NCBI GenBank assembly: GCA_043228905.1
Contig: JBHGNT010000002.1
Span: 9,300,001-9,364,000, forward strand
Direction: 5' to 3'
Source of the DNA: Azolla caroliniana
Taxonomy: Eukaryota; Plantae; Polypodiophyta
Length of the DNA stretch: 64,000 nt
Position numbers and translations under genes: made by a program. The notes below the pieces were generated by a model that was not told where the DNA came from, did not search any database, and saw only the letters and a program-made list of their open reading frames with translations. Below are positions 18,080 through 35,538 of this stretch, in pieces; positions within the stretch are counted from its first letter, which is position 1; the number at the start of each line of letters is the position of its first letter.

Positions 18080-18231
18080 TGTCGGGGTAGTTGTGGTTCG
18101 TGCGGCGAAGTCGCGGGGACTAAGGTTAAGGGGAGTTGAAGGAACTTAACTTTTAATAAGGCTACTTTTAATAAGGCTTGTATGGTGATGATAGAATGGT
18201 TAAGGATAGTAAGAAGAAGAGTTACGAGTAA

Positions 18232-18262
<31 letters not shown>

Positions 18263-20649
18263 CAAGCATAGATAATATGTCTGAGGCAAGCTTGAAACCC
18301 TTTTTTATATCCGTCGTTGTTTCTATGTCTGAGGCAAGCTTGAAAGATGGGCCTGTCTTTCCTTTTACTTTATCAGCTTCCTTTGGCTCAATAGCACCCT
18401 TTTCCATCTCCCTTCTCTTTTGTTCCCGGGTCTCATGTCTCTTTGTCGGATCAGCTTCCTCAGCTCTCTTCCGCTTCTCTTCCACTAGGACATCTTGTGC
18501 ATTCACTTGGGCGAATGCTGATAGCGCGTCTACTGGATCATTCCATCCAGTGAAGTTTCATATTTCATCTCCCGCTCTTTTTAATTCATCCACTCGAACC
18601 TTCCCTTTTCTTGCATAATCCATCACATCTTGCCAAAAGCCAGATCCACCATATGAGTCTTCTACGCGCAATCCTAAGGTTTCCACGGATTGTATCGCTT
18701 GAGTCGTTTCTCTCTCGGCATCTTCCATTAGCTTTTTCATTCCTTGCCCGAAGTTGAGTTGAAGTGGTTGTCGAGTGAATCGTGCCATCTTGATAGTAGA
18801 TTTTATTATGATTAAGAGCATCCCTATGCTCTTGACAATCTTTCTTTTGGTGGTCGATACTATCACACCACATACACCTTTGGACCATTCCACCTCCTTG
18901 CCTTGATGAAGTTGAGCCTTGTCCCGATTCTAGCTTCATCACTTTGATCGACAAGACTTTCATGCCTTTCACCAATTCGTGTAAGAGTGACTCTTCTACT
19001 TTCTTTTCTCCCGACTCGTTCCCCGTTTCTTCATCATTTCTTTCGGGCAACTCCATAAACCACTTTCTTTTGCAGAAATGGGCGCACGCCCTTTTCACCT
19101 CCTTCTAGTCTTCAGTAAGTCCACTTGGACTATTCTGATCTTCTAAAAGCATTCCCAAGTCCTTCCTGTCTTTAATATTAGTGGCTTGGAGAAACAATAT
19201 TACTTTATCTGGCATTAGTATATTTCTATCCCTAATATTTAATTGCTCAAATCTTTTAGAAAACTCTTTTAATACTTCCAAAACACTTAAATGTTTATCA
19301 GACTCTACCCAATCCATGAAAGCTCACCTTGTCATCCTTGACATATCGTTGAGGTTGTATTTATTGAGTAATACTCTTTCGAACGTTGTCCATGTTTGAT
19401 TCTCCCTTTGGAGCTCTTGGATCCTCTCTTGTAGCCCAATCGCAGTGACTCGACTAAAGCTATTAATTTTTGTAGCTTCGTCGACACCGCATTTAAGCAT
19501 TTCTTCATTATAAATCTTCAGAAATCTTGTTAAATTTATACCTTCGATGATGGCTTTGTCGATGCTTGCCATCATCCCTTGTTCCCGCATCACTTGTTCC
19601 ATCATCGTACACATAAGCCTCATTTGCTCCTCCATTTCTCCTCGTCGCCGCCTTCACGTCGGGTTCACCAAATGTGTCAGGGTAGTTGTGGTTCGTGCGG
19701 CGAAGTCGCGGGGACTAAGGTTAAGGGGAGTTGAAGGAACTTAACTTTTAATAAGGCTTGTATGGTGATGATAGAATGGTTAAGGATAGTAAGAAGAAGA
19801 GTTACGAGTAATGTGTGCGTGTGCGTGTGTGAGAGAGAGAGACAAGCATAGATAAAAGATAGAGACAATGTATGATTCAAGAAAGAAGATTGAGACAAAG
19901 TATGATTCTAGAAAGAAGATTGAGACAAAGTATGATTCAAGGAACAAGAGTATATGATATAAACATGATGTATATTAAAAATATAATATTTTACCAACTT
20001 TTACAATCCTTGATTGCAAGATGAATCTTTTGAATACCGACCCTTGATTTGAACCCACGACTTCCACTTTGAAACGCAAGGCTCTTCATCGAATAAGATA
20101 TCTTCAATACTTGCTTAGATTCTTTTCTCCCACTTTCTCTTGATTGATTGATTACCCTCCTTTTTTTCCATTTGTTTTCCTTTCCGCTCTTTTTATAAGT
20201 ATTGCCATGCATATGGTAATGTGTAGGAGCATGGCATGCATGTAATGCATGAGTTACATGTGATGCCTGATCGCCATTTGGCGCACATGCATTGCATGTG
20301 ATGCATGATAGCCATCATGCTCATTTGAGCTCCTATGTATGAAAATATATATGGGATAAGTATAATGATGGATATAATCCTAAAACAAATAACCTAGCTT
20401 AGTGGTGTATGCTTTTTGCTTGATATACAAGGTTGAGGGTCCAAGTCCCTCAATTTTACCTAATACAATATATAGCTTCATTCTTATATCATGAAGCACA
20501 TTTATTACATATTTTTATAAATAAATAGCCTAGCCTAGTGGTATGTACATTGTACTTCGTATATAAGGATGTGGGTTCAAGTCTCTCAAATATTATTAAA
20601 TACAACATTTAAGCTCATTTTTATATCGTGAAGCACATTCTTCACGACA
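18080..20649 (-). mobile_element. Internally deleted Ty3/gypsy element C (Trp PBS) inserted in the RT of A
   Basis: Truncated 3' LTR 18080-18275, gag with CMWCD zinc knuckle 18280-19635, PBS 19653-19670, 5' LTR 19675-20649; TSD ccgt/ccat splits RWFTVPKK. Confidence 0.9.
20391..20590 (+). promoter_or_regulatory. Two tandem tRNA-like Pol III A/B-box cassettes in the U3 of element C LTR
   Basis: A boxes TAGCTTAGTGG 20395 and TAGCCTAGTGG 20531; B boxes GGGTCCAAGTCCC 20437 (T-arm gaggg/ccctc) and GGGTTCAAGTC 20573. Confidence 0.65.
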
Positions 20650-23628: not shown

Positions 23629-24710
23629 TGTCGTGTTGTTACGCTCTTCGCGTGTGGAAAGAGGCGGGGCCGCGGGGGCCTTGAACCAAGGAGTGTGAGA
23701 AAGAAGAGAGAGAGAGAGAGCAGCTTGCAGAAACACAAGGGGACGAAGAGAGAGAGAGAGCAATGTCTTAATTACAAATCAATAATGATTACAACTGGCA
23801 AGCCGGCAACGAACCGAACTCAGGCGAACACACACACACACAACCCGACTACACTGTGGAACCTCTGCCAGAAGCACACGGGCTGTCCAGAAAGCAGAGG
23901 CAACTCAGTCCCAAAATCCTGCAGAGAATGACGAACGATGGAGGAGAGAGCTCGGTCCCAGTCCGACAACACTTCCTCCTCCCTCCAAAAACGCGATACC
24001 TTTTCCTCACTTCTACCTCTCTTTTATAACCCAAGGAGGGAGGCCGTTACCACTCGTTACATCATGTTTATTCCCTGTCCTTTCGAACAGGGATACACCT
24101 CGATTTCCTCCCTACCGAATGCGTACTACCTAGGATTTCGCCTCAGGTGACTTGTACCTACCTACATACTATACAACAAAACTTGTGCCCACGTGTAAGG
24201 GCCGGTTTACGCGAGACAAATGAAAATCCTAAAACGAGATCCTAAAACCCAAAATTCTGAAACCCTAATTGCAACGCAAAGAAACCCAAAAAGTGGAAGC
24301 CCCTAAAACATGGCCCCTCACTCCATTTTATAGTAGTAAGGGGTGAGACACATTCATTACATAAAGAAGAGGTCAACCCCCCTTCTTTTCAATGGGGGAA
24401 TATTTGGCCTTGATCTTAGGAGGAGACATTGATGGAGCCTTAACTCCCTCTCCTCACACACACTATGTTCACTACTCACTACACCCGTACTTCATGTACT
24501 CTCCCTTTAGTCTAATGTGCATGTGTACATAAGTGCACATCACATTTACACTTTATGAATTTTCGTAGTGCACTTTTAACACCTTACATTTACCCTTCCT
24601 TTTTTACATTTGTTTCTTTTACAAATCTTCCAAGTGCATGTGCAATGTTGGACATTCCCATTTTATCCATCCCACTTGGTTTTCCCACCATGGCTGAAAA
24701 TCCTCACGAC
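23629..24710 (-). repeat. 5' LTR of element A (chimeric U3)
   Basis: 23629-24212 matches the 3' LTR; 24213-24710 differs and ends cctcacgaca before TSD ccgc. Confidence 0.8.
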
Positions 24711-27050: not shown

Positions 27051-30000
27051 TGTCATGAGATGGCAAGACTTGAACCCATGACCTTATGATATATGGGTCG
27101 AGCTCTTAACCATCACACCATCTATTGTAATTCATAGGATATTATTTTCATTTATGTTTTATTATAAGAAAGTAATGTATATTCCAGATTTCTCTGGAAC
27201 ATTCTAGAAGTTTTAGGATTACTCTTGACAACACTATAAAAGAAGGCACTAGGCATTATGTCGAACCAAATTGGTTCAACGCCAGTCTTAAGCCTCTCAG
27301 TCGCTTTGTACTTATCTTTTCACATAATATATTAGCTGCTGTCATCATCTTTCTCTCTCTCTCATCCTCGCTATCTCTCTCTCTCTCCTCTTCTCACTTC
27401 CTCTCTCGGGAATCTTACGCAATCCCGTCCTCTTAGTACTAATAGTACTGCTCTTCTTAGTACTAATTCCATCTCTGCTTTAGTACTATTCCTGACAGTT
27501 TGAACCAATTTTTCCTTTCCTCCAGCCTACTTGTCGTTCTCCCTCATCCTCCTACCCTTTTCCCTATACTATGGCTACTGTTAGTGCCCAAGAATATCAA
27601 TCCGTTTTCTCCGAGTTATAGTGCCTAAAAGAAAAGTTTGTTGCCCTGGAACAAGAAAACCAACGGTTGATAGGGGATTTGCAACAAATTGCTCTCGAAA
27701 AACAACAAACGCAACAACAACATGGGGAGTTAGCATTACGGGTACAACAACTCGAAGCAGCGTTGCAACAACAAGGATCAAGTCCCCAAGGATTTCATAA
27801 AGAGCCCAAGATTGGACTTCCTGTGAAATTTGATGGAACGCGATCGCAATTCCGGGGATTCCTTAATCAGGTACGATTAGTCATCCAAATGCATCCTTCC
27901 CGATATCCCACTGATGCATCTCGAGTCGGCCTAATAGGCACGTTACTTAGTGGCTCAACCTTGGCATGGTTCGCTCCACTTCTAGAAAAACAATCACCCT
28001 TGCTTAATAACTTTGAAGATTTTATTGGTGAGTTTAAAGCCTGCTTTGGAGATACCGACAACATCAGGACGACGATCAACAAGATCCGAAGATTGCGTCA
28101 AGGCGATCGTCTAGCCTCTGCCTAAGCGGCGGATTTCTGTCTACTCGCCTCAGATATTCCCTGGGATGATCAGGCCCTCATGGAGCAGTTTCGCTACGGC
28201 TTACGCAATGATGTCAAAGATCTGCTTTTAACCTTCCCCGAAGAACCAAAGTCTCTTACGGAGGCAATCAATCGAGCGGTCCGATGCGACAACCACCTTT
28301 TCGAACGGCGTTCCGAGCGTCAGTTACAAATACCACGCTCTCGGCCGGAACCCACATACACCTCAGTCACGGCTAAACCGTTTGCACGCGATGTACCTCA
28401 AGCCAATATTCCGACACCGATGGAGATCGACACCATGCGTCGACGCGGCCCGTTATCGGAAGAAGAAAAGCAATGACGACGTGCCAATCGATTATGCCTT
28501 TATTGCAGTGGATCAGGGCATATCGCCATCAATTGTCCCCATAGGCCAAGAAGACAGGTAAATCAAATCGTCGCTTGTACTAAACCCGAGTCAATTCTTC
28601 CCTTCGGAGTGTCTGATAGTATTAATAGTACTAATAGAGTGTCAGATAGTATTCATAGTACTAATAGCCCAAGTATCTCAAATAAATTTGAAATCCTTAG
28701 TCAATTAGATGAAGAGTTAAACGATTGAGTCCAGCCAAAATAGGAGCCGTTTGGTTGGACAACAACCCTAGATCTGTACAGCCCATTAGTGGTTCCATTC
28801 CTTCCAAGCAAGTTAGCAATGTGTTCCTAGCCCAAGTCATTGTTAGTACTAAAAGTACTCCCCCAGTACCCGTCCTAGCACTCTTAGATTCCGGAGCTAA
28901 TTTCTGTTTCATGGATCGAAATTTTGCCCAAGCTTCTCAGATAGCCCTAAGAAAACTTCCTTGTCCCGCATCTGTAGTAGTCATTGATGGTCGTCCCATT
29001 GCTTCCGGGAATATTGTAGAAGAATCAGAACCCATTCAAGTTGTCCTAGGTAGTTTTGTGTGTGTAATATCATTTAATATAATTAGTAGTCCAGAGCATC
29101 CCATTGTCCTAGGATTACCTTGGTTTGAATTACATAATCCAGCCATAGATTGGAGAACAAGAGAAGTCCGATATCGACCACCCCAAGAATCTACTCACCG
29201 AGTTTCGACCATTTCACTCCATCAATTACGCGAAGAAGGACACAAGGAGGCAATGTTCCTATTTGCAATATCAGTACATCCTTCCAGCACTATTAAGAAG
29301 GACTCCTCAGTACAACTTCCGGCAAAATATCATCCTTATGCCGATGTATTTGACAAGGTAAAAGCCGGTACCCTTCCTCATCACCGTCCCTATGACTGTC
29401 CCATCGATTTACAACCAGGAACAGAGCCACCATGGGGACCAATTTACAACTTGTCACCCACTGAGTTAGAAGTCCTTCGAGCCTACATAGAGGAGAACTT
29501 GGCAAGTGGGTTCATCCGTCATTCGAAATCTCCGGCCGGTGCACCCATCTTCTTTGTCAAGAAGAAAGATGGCTCACTTCGTCTCGTCGTTGATTACCGC
29601 GGATTGAATAAGGTCACCATCCGGAATAGGTATGCACTTCCTCTTATATCAAGTCTTTTGGAGCGAGTTAATGGTGCCAAGTTTTTTACCAAAATCGATC
29701 TACGAGGAGCGTATAACCTCGTGCGGATCCGACCAGGAGATGAATGGAAGACCACCTTTCGCACGCGGTATGGGCATTTCGAGTATACTGTTATGCCGTT
29801 CGGCCTAACCAATGCACCCGCAGTCTTCCAACACATGGCAAATGATATATTCAGAGAACTCTTGGATATCTGTTTGATCATCTATCTTGATGATCTATTG
29901 ATTTATTCGAAGACCCAGCAAGAGCACGATTCTCATGTACTATTAGTACTAAAGCGACTCCGCGAGAGTGGTCTTTATGCCAAGCTTTGACTGCAAGCAA

Positions 30001-32743
30001 GTGGAATTTCTAGGCTACGTCATCTCCTCAAAAGGCATCGCCATGGATCCAGCTAAAGTCCAAACTGTACTAGAGTGGCAAATTCCACGGTCGGTACGAG
30101 ATGTACAATGTTTTCTAGGTTTTGCTAACTTCTACCGTAAGTTTATACAGGATTACTTGAAGATTATCTTACCCCTCACACAACTTACGAAGAAGGGCCA
30201 AGCATTTCTTTGGTCCATTGAAGCAGATATGGCTTTTCGGCATCTTAAGAAAGCCTTTACATCAGCACCGATTCTAGGTCATGTGGATACTAGCAAAACA
30301 TTCATCATGGAGGCCGATGCTTCAGATTTCGCCCTCGGTAGCATCCTTTCTCAACAAGGAGATAAAGAAGAGTTGCATCCGATGGCTTTCCATTCGCGCA
30401 AATTCGATGTTGCGGAAATCAACTACGAAATACATGACAAGGAGTTATTAGCCATCGTGGATTCATTTGTGCAATGGCAGCATTTCTTAGAGGGCTCTCC
30501 ACATTAGGTCGTTGTCTTTAGTGATCATAAAAATCTTGCTTATTTCCAGAACGCTCGCGTACTAAATCGACGGCAAGCTCGGTGGGCGCAATTCCTCACG
30601 TGTTTCGACTTCAAAATCACATATCGACCGGGGAAGTAGCAAGGAAAAGCAGATGCACTATCATGGCGTTCATATCTTGCACCTCGTCCTGGTGATCCAA
30701 CATTTGATAATCAAAAGCAAGTAATCTTGGGACCAACACGATTGCACACGACGCAGATTTTTCACACCCCGATGGATTCACGGATTACCGATGGCATCCG
30801 TGCAAACTTGAAGACGGATAGTTTTGCTCAAAACATCTTGGCGCACATTGATACTTCTCGGGCATCCTGTTCTCAGTCTCAACAACCAGGTATTGACTAC
30901 CGACAATTCGAATATCATGATGGTTTGTTATTCTTTAAAAAGCGCGTATATGTCCCCGATTGCTCCTGTCGCCTTCAAATCATCCAGCATTGTCACGACA
31001 CCTATACGGCGGGACATTTCGGTAGTATTAAGACGTTGGAGCTAGTGTAACGATCTTTTTGGTGGCCCCACATGCGCCGTTTTGTCGACGACTACGTTTG
31101 GACCTATGATGCTTGCTGCTGAGCAAAGATGCCACGACACCATCCATATGGCTTGTTGGAACTCTTACCGATTCCAAGTAAGCCGTGGCAATCTATTCTT
31201 CTTGATTTTATCATAGATCTGCCGGTCTCGCAGGGGTTCGATGCTATCTTAACCGTCGTTGATCGATATACGAAGTTGGCACATTTTGTTCCGTGTACTA
31301 AGGCCATCAGTAGCGAGGAAAACGCCGCCCTAGTCATGCGTGAGGTATTTCGGCATCATGGCCTCCCAGACTGTATCATCAGTGACCGAGGACCGCAATT
31401 TGTCTCCAAATTTTGGCAGCATCTCTTCAAGATGCTAAAGGTCTCTTGCAACCTCTCCTCCGGCTACCATCCTCAGACCGATGGGCAGGCAGAACGAACA
31501 AACCAAACGCTGGAGCAATATCTCCAGTGTTTCCTGAGTTATCAACAAGACGATTGGGCCGAGATTCTCCACTTTGCGGAGTTTGCGTATAATAATGCTA
31601 TTCACTCCTCGACTCGAGTCTCCCCATTCTACGCTTATACTGGTTCTCATCCTCGCTGGTCGGTGATCGACACCCCGGAGCTACCTACCAATCCTCGTGC
31701 TGGGGATCATTTGGAGAGACTACGCAAGATCCAGACAGATCTCTCGACTCATCTTCGTCATGCTCAACAGACACAGAAGACTTACACGGATCGTCATCGG
31801 CTTCCCTCCTCTTTTGCCATCAGAGATCGAGTATGGCTCTTACGTCGTCACATCAAGACTACTCGACCGTGCAACAAGTTGGATTATCGACGACTCGGTC
31901 CTTTCCTTATTACGGGTAAAGTTAATGATGTCACATTCCGCCTTGATCTTCCTTCGTAGCTTCAGATACATCCGGTTTTCCATTGTTCTCTTCTTGAACC
32001 TTATAAAGCAAACACCATTCCCGATCGTGTTACACCACCGCCGCCCCCGCTGGAGTTGGACGCCGACCCGGAGTATGAAGTTGCTGCCATCCTCGATTCC
32101 AAACTTATTCGCAACAAAATTTATTATTTGGTCGATTGGGTTGGTTATAGTCCAAGCGAACGCACTTGGGAACCTGTCGAGCATGTTGCCAATGCTTAGG
32201 ATCTGCTTGCTGATTTCCACTGAAAGTATCCAGACAAACCCGGTCCGCAATCAGCGCCGACTCGTTCCACTCGTCGTCTTTAAGGGGGAGATATTGTCAT
32301 GAGATGGAAAGACTCGAACCCATGACCTTATGGTATATGGGTCGAGCTCTTAATCATCACACCATCTATTGTAATTCATAAGATATTATTTTCATTTATG
32401 TTTTATTATAAGAAAGTAATGTATATTTCAGATTTCTCTAGGACATTCTAGAAGTTTCAGGATTACTCTTGACAACACTATAAAAGAAAGCACTAGGCAT
32501 TATGTTGAACCAAATTGGTTCAACGCCAGTCTTAAGCCTCTCAGTCGCTTTGTACTTATCTTTTCACATAATATATTAGCTGCTGTCATCATCTTTCTCT
32601 CTCTCTCATCCTCGCTATCTCTCTCTCTCTCTCCTCTTCTCACTTCCTCTCTCGGGAATCTTACGCAGTCCCGTCCTCTTAGTACTAATAGTACCGCTCT
32701 TCTTAGTACTAATTCCATCTCTGCTTTAGTACTATTCCTGACA
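27051..32743 (+). mobile_element. Tcn1-like chromovirus (Ty3/gypsy) element E, full length
   Basis: LTRs 27051-27497 and 32295-32743 (~13 substitutions by eye), TSD gttga/gtcga; gag 27571-28728, protease LLDSGA, RT YLDD, RNaseH, integrase, chromodomain EYEVAAILD...TWEP ~32070-32230, PPT aagggggagata. Confidence 0.95.
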
Positions 32744-34813: not shown

Positions 34814-35538
34814 TGTCGTGCCTTTCGGCTCCGGATCGTTGCGTGAGTCGGGTGGGAACCACTAAGGTTTTGGACTAGGAGAAAGAAGAATATGAGATAA
34901 GGCTCCTTATGAATGGATTGCAAGAAAGAGAAATATTTGAAGGAAGATATGAAACTCGTGAATCCCACGAGTATAGTGTATTAATTGATACTTAGAATGT
35001 AAGAGAGAAATAGATGGCAAAATCGTGAATCCCACGAATATTTTTTTATTAATCAACCCTTGTAAAATAATCAACAACCCCCCATACATCTTTCTCTCCT
35101 CCTTATATAAGGATGGAAGAGGCTAAGCACAGCTTCATGCTTTTTCTAAAGTGTTCATGCACACTAAATGTGCATGAGTAGCCTTTTTACACTATGATTT
35201 TATTTCCTAAATATAGTGCTCATGCTCGCTAGATGTGCACGAGTCATTTTTTATTGGTGTACATTTTTCTTATAAATAAAGTATTCACGCATTCTAGAAA
35301 ATGCATGATAAATAAAGGTAGGCGTAAATAAAAGTCTTATATGTATTAAATCTATATTTAAAACACTTAAGATAAGTTAGTATAGTGGTAAGGTTGGGGT
35401 TTGTCTACGTGGAGGTACAGGGTTTGAATCCTGCCCTATACATGTAATAAATGTTTTTAATATTTTATTTTATTTATTATACGTACTTTAATATAGTATT
35501 TTACATATTTCACGTAGTGTGTGATTCACACTACGACA
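34814..35538 (-). mobile_element. Solo LTR of the Trp-primed gypsy family in the RT of D
   Basis: tgtcg...cgaca termini, TSD ccgt/ccgc, left end resembles the C LTR; tRNA-like cassette at 35378-35433. Confidence 0.85.

Follow-up and report, generated by a model that had tools for sequence, protein, structure and literature searches.

An outward-facing A/B box cassette at the U3 tip of coding gypsy retrotransposons around an Azolla caroliniana locus: a possible portable TFIIIC/TFIIIB platform

Why would a coding retrotransposon keep, near the tip of its long terminal repeat (LTR), a promoter of the RNA polymerase III (Pol III) type that faces away from the element? The question is raised by a stretch of 64,000 nucleotides from Azolla caroliniana (GenBank assembly GCA_043228905.1, contig JBHGNT010000002.1, positions 9,300,001 to 9,364,000 of the forward strand), hereafter the window, which is nested LTR-retrotransposon DNA whose elements were delimited by self-comparison and translation. 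The answer we propose combines the comparison of LTRs inside and outside the window with the arrangement of the U3 (unique 3') region: the letters and the spacing of a tRNA-type A box and B box are under purifying selection, and the pair may serve the element as a DNA-level platform for TFIIIC and TFIIIB.

Six such cassettes lie in the window, named here after the elements C, S, F and D that host them:

20395..20448, plus strand: cassette C1, A box 20395-20405, B box 20438-20448, found by the generic scan and the trained profile
20531..20584, plus strand: cassette C2, A box 20531-20541, B box 20574-20584; a T5 run at 20618-20622 is a candidate Pol III terminator, and the LTR tip is 65 nt away
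20383..20639, plus strand: tandem duplication of the U3 tip unit holding C1 and C2, period 136 nt, 1.9 copies, from repeat analysis
35378..35431, plus strand: cassette S, A box at 35378, B box 35421-35431; T5 run 22 nt on, LTR tip 107 nt away
43731..43784, minus strand: cassette F, in the 5' LTR of F, A box at 43784, B box 43741-43731; T7 run 42 nt past the B box
27066..27120, minus strand: cassette D5, in the 5' LTR of D, A box 27120-27110, B box 27076-27066; LTR tip 15 nt away
32310..32364, minus strand: cassette D3, in the 3' LTR of D, A box from 32364, B box 32320-32310; it faces the polypurine tract (PPT) and the chromodomain

The first-pass annotation had described two tandem units of about 136 bp at the outer end of the C 5' LTR, each with an A box and, 42 nt later, a B box, and had seen the same architecture at 35378, 43731, 27060 and 32304. 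Both units and all four further pairs (S, F, D5 and D3) were recovered, the distance in C1 and C2 being 43 nt from T8 to G52, or 42 if the preceding G is counted. In a generic scan for A/B pairs on either strand, five of the six cassettes rank at the top (5 hits of at least 23 bits, against 0.03 in 60 dinucleotide shuffles) and D3 scores 18.7 bits. A profile trained on 10 Tcn1 loci from outside the window picks out these six and no others, with scores of 27-38 bits; the runner-up among distinct sites reaches 14.9 bits, and 30 shuffles yield at most 16.2. The A-to-B spacing is 43-44 nt in 6/6, and all six cassettes face outward, antisense to their element, in U3 and upstream of the enhancer and the TATA box. 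The perfect T-arm that had been reported at the first B box of C exists as a 5-bp stem and a 7-nt loop at 20435-20451; it belongs to C unit 1 only and is not a feature common to the cassettes. Neither scan finds a cassette in the Phygy-like LTRs of elements B and E or in the copia LTRs of the window. A B-box-like word in sense orientation stands alone at 20055-20045 (minus strand), in R/U5 of C, with a variable-loop-like lead-in; it lacks a good A box and is not conserved in F, and it was rejected as a sense-orientation counter-example, being a B-like word only that both scans miss.

The hosts represent two distinct gypsy lineages, as had been claimed, namely Phygy-like C, S and F and the Tcn1 chromovirus D:

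18080..20649, minus strand: element C, Phygy-like Ty3/gypsy, internally deleted, within the reverse transcriptase (RT) gene of element B
19675..20649, minus strand: C 5' LTR, about 975 nt, followed by the primer-binding site (PBS) and then gag, from self-comparison and translation
20190..20197, minus strand: TATA box of the inferred Pol II promoter of C, from sequence
27051..32743, plus strand: element D, Tcn1 chromovirus with gag, protease (PR), RT, ribonuclease H, integrase and chromodomain, nested in a copia element
27235..27279, plus strand: D TATA box at 27235-27241 and, at 27268-27279, a self-primer of 12 nt that is complementary to the PBS (27500-27511), from sequence
34814..35538, minus strand: solo LTR S, Phygy-like ends, 4-bp NCGN target-site duplication (TSD), orientation inferred from layout
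5' LTR ending at 44268, PBS at 44276, plus strand: element F, Phygy-like, LTR tip lost, gag kept, flanks not definable

Element C, whose PBS we take to be of the tRNA-Trp type, has a 4-bp TSD of the NCGN type with one mismatch, and the RT frame of B is restored only by counting the 4-bp duplication at the C insertion. The 3' LTR of C is reduced to about 196 nt of U5, so that a comparison of its 5' and 3' LTRs is impossible; relatives of C have PPT-like loose contig ends past 20651. Alignment of the gag products gives 39-44% identity between C and F and about 31-50% between either and B, for whose RT there are named homologues in Adiantum, Calypogeia and Riccia. The 4-bp NCGN target site, found in C and S and also in B, is a signature of Phygy (PMC6317226), and we write Phygy-like because C, S and F have no RT. 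Element D measures 5.7 kb and has several stops, a 5-bp TSD, a PPT, LTRs that are 96.7% identical and a chromodomain at the integrase end (PF00385, E 1.6e-10). Its self-primer, of a kind described for Tcn1 (PMC6317226), lies 33 nt past the start of the TATA box; the two mark the Pol II start and therefore place the D cassette in U3. The position near the U3 end, asserted for all sites, thus holds for C, S and D and is presumptive for F, whose LTR tip is lost and whose cassette precedes the TATA box by about 170 nt. Short inverted repeats occur at the U3 tips of C (20628-20645) and S (35515-35534), and the LTR tip of D is complementary to the bases just ahead of its B box.

To establish the distribution of the cassette, loci were selected only on their chromodomain, without regard to the LTR. 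There are 93 of them, the 80 best among 592 in 16 of 64 metagenome parts plus 13 from genome contigs; the viral-contig scans gave no loci. A tree of the integrase ends (94/94 rows, the fetched loci and D) places D in a clade that has a support of 0.974 and comprises 19 loci; four of them end too early and 15 are assessable. An antisense cassette stands at the 3' LTR tip in 14 of these 15, with a spacing of 43 or 44 in 14/14; its B box ends 112-139 nt past the chromodomain match, some 15-40 nt inward of the LTR tip. The exception, L007, is rearranged, and its PPT is missing at the expected place. Outside the clade the cassette is found in 0 of 74 loci, five of which are too short and about 40 of which have a PPT and tip recognisable by eye. 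With the trained profile the best locus outside reaches 16.5 against 30.5-43.4 inside; 10 of the 14 cassette loci trained it, and the remaining four score 35-40. The threshold for calling a cassette in the clade was set after the scores had been seen, and the calls are confirmed independently by the unscored positions 44-48 and by the trained profile. A/B-like matches in the PR-RT linker of L008 (two) and in L045 (one), which that profile misses, were taken as chance. In seven loci of the clade the pol frame runs for 1044-1235 codons without a stop. The metagenome scan covered Tcn1, and the Phygy-like side consists of the three window LTRs and the aligned contigs; within this scope the cassette is confined to one Tcn1 clade and three Phygy-like LTRs. 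In Tcn1-like clades without it, U3 often begins instead with short tandem repeat arrays, seen at the 3' LTR tip of L016, L020, L023, L024, L032-L037, L043, L070 and L073.

Is this tip kept for its letters or for the shape of an RNA? In 10 families (45 pairs, mean amino-acid identity 64%), identity reaches 84% at the ten box positions regarded as textbook invariants, with 92/100 letters kept, while in the same pairs it is 41% at four-fold synonymous sites (chance 30%), 42% in the free spacer and 41% in the upstream sequence. The pairing of the cloverleaf stems, evaluated by permutation in 14 families of both lineages, amounts to 23/56 for the D stem (p 0.60), 26/70 for the anticodon stem (p 0.08), 12/42 for the T stem (p 0.22) and 27/98 for the acceptor stem (p 0.11). 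Since box identity is far above that of synonymous and spacer sites and the stems are not above permutation, selection acts on the letters of the promoter and not on RNA shape: the alignments indicate that purifying selection maintains the promoter-type letters and their spacing, not a cloverleaf. ARAGORN predicts 0 tRNA genes in the window, Rfam scans give no tRNA match and no 5S match, the boxes are of the tRNA type, and the six window cassette RNAs have no fold in common. A functional tRNA mimic was rejected on the stems and on this missing common fold.

A free short interspersed element (SINE), the origin that the first-pass annotation had named among its refutations, would bring its own tail and TSD. 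Neither was seen: there is no A6 tail, and flanking repeats measure just 5-7 nt, the tandem unit aside. Contigs continuing into unlike sequence amount to 0-6% in four sequencing runs. A tRNA or SINE origin of the cassette is likely, and possible donors are a captured tRNA/SINE head or an inverted Helenus-like LTR.

The variation within families was followed in contigs aligned to the U3 regions of D and C; they come from 4 of the 19 runs listed, which bear four organism labels and represent at most 4 samples and 3 studies. The families are abundant, with 1734-2749 contigs per run for D U3 and 324-555 for C U3 and thousands of contig variants across the four runs; PPT-like loose ends stand ahead of 27051. 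Among the variants listed, to which all the variant counts given here and below refer, the D B box has none and the D A box varies mainly at free or R (purine) positions. Position 14 of D is polymorphic, the window letter making up about 1/3 of the depth, T8 varies in a minority, and canonical A boxes are present in loose ends of diverged D subfamilies. At 20441, in the C1 B box, the window has C; the B box of the window copy is a private mutant, because all contig depth reads T there. The T5 run at 20413-20417 inside C unit 1 is likewise found in the window only, relatives being without it. These relatives have one, two or more tip units (several contigs span both, four skip one and others add one), counts that must be read knowing that contig joints at this sequence likeness may stem from repeats. 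In two contigs the spacer is replaced by unrelated letters and its length is unchanged. The boxes thus belong to the majority sequence of their family and, as the Tcn1 loci show, to the clade as a whole: they are built into the LTR, as had been proposed. None of the three outcomes that the first-pass annotation had set as refuting its proposal was observed.

The order of tip, outward cassette, AT-rich stretch, enhancer-like block and TATA box is the same in both lineages. Upstream of the A box, the AT content over 47-60 nt is 77-90% in 13/13 families having that sequence. The enhancer-like block differs by family and consists of heat-shock-like arrays or CATG-rich motifs, names that reflect what we take these motifs to be. 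Heat-shock-element-like arrays occur in U3 of part of the Tcn1 clade, in D (27197-27209), L006 (up to 6 matches) and L011. The second kind is represented in C:

20265..20290, minus strand: CATG-rich 26-nt U3 motif, candidate enhancer, 24/26 nt identical in U3 of the Tcn1 locus L018

The palindromic core of this motif is also present in F (43888-43916), L009, L014 and L015 and in no outside locus, and the motif is restricted to cassette-bearing LTRs. The motif of C and L018 and the extended consensus in common suggest one origin of the cassette and a transfer of U3 between gypsy lineages; alternatively, the sharing of the motif would reflect convergence on one transcription-factor site. The statement that the cassettes are always antisense holds for 6/6 window sites and 14/14 loci, and was overstated as to its weight: because the shared motif and consensus suggest one origin, it would amount to one or two events, not six.

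The model we favour, for which we see about even chances, is that of a selected TFIIIC/TFIIIB platform shielding or opening the Pol II promoter of the element. The tRNA-derived A and B box promoter, fixed outward at the U3 tip, would bind TFIIIC, and TFIIIB would be placed on the AT-rich stretch between the cassette and the LTR enhancer. The complex would act as a portable barrier or open-chromatin platform guarding the Pol II promoter from flanking heterochromatin, and the outward orientation would be kept because Pol III thereby stays out of that promoter. The cassette cannot serve as promoter of the element, because it faces away and because a TATA promoter with a defined start of R is present. 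The yeast elements Ty1 and Ty3 reach the neighbourhood of tRNA genes by target choice; those described here would carry the equivalent of a neighbouring tRNA gene of their own. This model fits the conservation at the DNA level, the place between flank and enhancer, the duplication of the unit and the nested-repeat setting. TFIIIB needs AT-rich upstream DNA (PMC13578239), the kind of chromodomain found in D has been linked to heterochromatin targeting (PMC7466625), and fission yeast tRNA genes (tDNAs) with an A box, a TATA box, TFIIIC and Pol III are barriers (PMC2040200).

Several points weigh against the platform. The yeast tDNA barrier is orientation-independent (PMC2040200), so that a barrier alone leaves the fixed orientation unexplained, and according to the accessible part of a 2022 review no barrier factor of yeast or animal type had been shown to act in plants (PMC9540200). 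Two conserved features lie outside the boxes: tRNA positions 44-48, left out of the scoring, are 85% identical and not obviously needed for A/B binding, and a T at tRNA position 35 is kept in 13/14 cassette families; the platform does not by itself explain positions 44-47 and 35. Sister Tcn1 clades and the B and E LTRs of the window persist without a cassette. Finally, the comparison of the boxes with their neighbours, clear across families, does not separate them within families, where 6/57 informative box positions are variable against 65/493 outside. Two of the six variable box sites restore the consensus, two remain within it and two break it; counting the last alone (2/57 against 65/493) gives p 0.02 for a comparison of unlike things, and the within-family test is weak.

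A larger claim, which we hold tentatively and consider somewhat less probable than its contrary, is that a TFIIIC insulator module at the LTR tip of autonomous plant elements was passed between Tcn1 and Phygy together with the enhancer, keeps heterochromatin-dwelling elements transcribable and has seeded thousands of mobile boundaries. If true, plants would thereby gain their first barrier of the Pol III type. A selected outward Pol III promoter in coding gypsy elements needs a job other than sense transcription. If that job is insulation, it would answer how elements dwelling in heterochromatin keep their promoter on, and would offer a concrete candidate for the plant barrier element, whose identity is "largely elusive" according to the same review (PMC9540200). 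The module, of 55 nt with known critical letters, is easily mutated in a reporter.

Could the product rather than the complex be what is selected? An outward Pol III RNA, either short, if a T run comes after it, or reading through the PPT into the integrase end (3' LTR) or into the flank (5' LTR), would regulate the element or its neighbours by self-limitation or as a small-RNA decoy. This is unlikely in our view, even though it explains the orientation directly and agrees with the retention of both boxes and of the AT-rich upstream stretch. The free spacer has no T4 run in 13/13 families (1.7 expected, P 0.13, not significant), the T5 run in C1 is private to the window copy, and a T4-T7 run lies at most 42 nt from the B box in all four Phygy-like cassettes. 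However, the predicted RNA has no common sequence or structure, and a terminator inside the LTR exists in just 5/10 Tcn1 families, so that the outward products would vary widely from one family to another.

Other DNA-level uses of a Pol III complex, such as a polar pause of the replication fork, nuclear positioning or docking of the integration machinery, seem to us distinctly unlikely. Pol III genes are fork barriers and the LTRs of Tf1/Tf2 bear a polar Sap1 barrier (PMC5371812); such polarity would account for the orientation, and the same letters would be selected. On the other hand, no insertion next to the cassettes is evident in the window, where C, D and S lie in coding regions of other elements. 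Improbable as well is the docking of a host tRNA, as in Ty3, by the antisense tRNA copy in the 3' U3 of the genomic RNA, complementary to the D and T loops of a tRNA, for dimerisation or strand transfer. It would account for the strict antisense orientation, the place directly after the PPT and the conserved positions 44-48, and the 3' half of the bipartite PBS of Ty3 is a precedent (PMC11381356); yet D and its clade are self-primed through a 12-nt match and need no primer tRNA, and the letters of C, S and F mismatch the T arm of the tRNA to which their own PBS points. Moreover, conservation falls on scattered invariant letters, the stems being free, and not on a contiguous complement of one tRNA, the distance to the tip ranges from 15 to about 200 nt, and the units are duplicated. 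That the cassette is a passenger, an old SINE or tRNA head inserted in the tolerated antisense orientation and decaying neutrally, is very improbable: its likely tRNA/SINE origin, the box-breaking changes in single copies (C1, D3, L002, L009, L041), the many relatives without it and within-family counts no lower in the boxes would suit it, but the excess of box over synonymous identity in the same families, a spacing fixed although spacers are replaced, the lack of tail or TSD and the presence in nearly all assessable clade loci all speak against it.

Some further features of the window were recorded. The 5' end of element B has an extra LTR-like piece of 490 nt (24221-24710) missing from the B 3' LTR, and its 5' LTR looks chimeric in sequence, because the matching target site falls outside that piece. 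The gag of F holds an insertion resembling a miniature inverted-repeat transposable element (44540-45350), which has terminal inverted repeats and a TSD of 8 bp and is presumably of the hAT type. A lone degenerate 18S-5.8S-28S rDNA unit with a gap in 28S lies amid the retrotransposons (54621-60254), and the fragment past it at 60200-60520 resembles what we take to be a ribosomal protein gene.

How do these cassettes compare with known systems? We found no account of Pol III boxes lying antisense in the LTRs of autonomous plant elements in the literature covered, most subscription papers and the Repbase annotations lying outside its scope. The first-pass annotation, which knew of no description in plant gypsy LTRs, had overlooked the closest described relative, Helenus (TRIMp3; Kojima 2024, PMC10886601), with tRNA-type promoters in the LTRs of miniature terminal-repeat retrotransposons (TRIMs). 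As far as the accessible text goes, Helenus resembles our cassettes in its tRNA-derived A/B boxes inside LTRs, box-centred conservation, absence of a functional tRNA and likely SINE/tRNA origin, and one family is known in a lycophyte. By their size, coding capacity and orientation the elements described here fall outside it: Helenus elements are non-coding TRIMs of 311-1263 bp, whereas D has 5.7 kb with gag-pol, and C and F have gag; in Helenus-1_SMo and two wasp Helenus families the tRNA head is in sense and able to drive the element RNA, whereas here it is antisense at the U3 tip. The same paper mentions other Repbase LTRs with tRNA-like parts and, in that text, analyses only TRIMs, so that an unpublished Repbase annotation of such LTRs may exist. 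Cassandra and Ajax, the first of which had been drawn upon as an analogy, also have an internal Pol III promoter copied in both LTRs (PMC10886601, PMC10946416), but theirs is a 5S (A/IE/C) promoter transcribing their own non-autonomous element, whereas the type-2 A/B boxes here face away and are unable to make the genomic RNA; the mechanism therefore differs. The proposed action of TFIIIC, TFIIIB and Pol III at a boundary is what our platform would have in common with fission yeast tDNA/B-box barriers (PMC2040200) and B2 SINE boundaries (PMC8136502); those are host genes or SINEs and were tested experimentally, while the barrier proposed here comes from sequence comparison and would travel within the LTR. 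In the bipartite PBS of Ty3 a tRNA-complementary sequence likewise lies near the 3' end of the genomic RNA (PMC11381356), but it pairs with the primer tRNA of Ty3 itself in blocks of 11-12 nt, whereas ours are scattered promoter invariants, and D has no tRNA primer. As to the hosts, D agrees with Tcn1 chromoviruses in its chromodomain, self-priming and 5-bp TSD, and C, S and B agree with Phygy non-chromoviruses in their 4-bp NCGN target sites (Neumann et al. 2019, PMC6317226); the portion of that description available to us mentions no Pol III boxes in LTRs, and here the cassette is found in a sub-clade only. In these sources, as far as they could be consulted, the only Pol III promoters described in LTRs are sense promoters of very small non-autonomous elements, whereas the cassette-bearing elements of the present study are coding and keep their TATA promoter.
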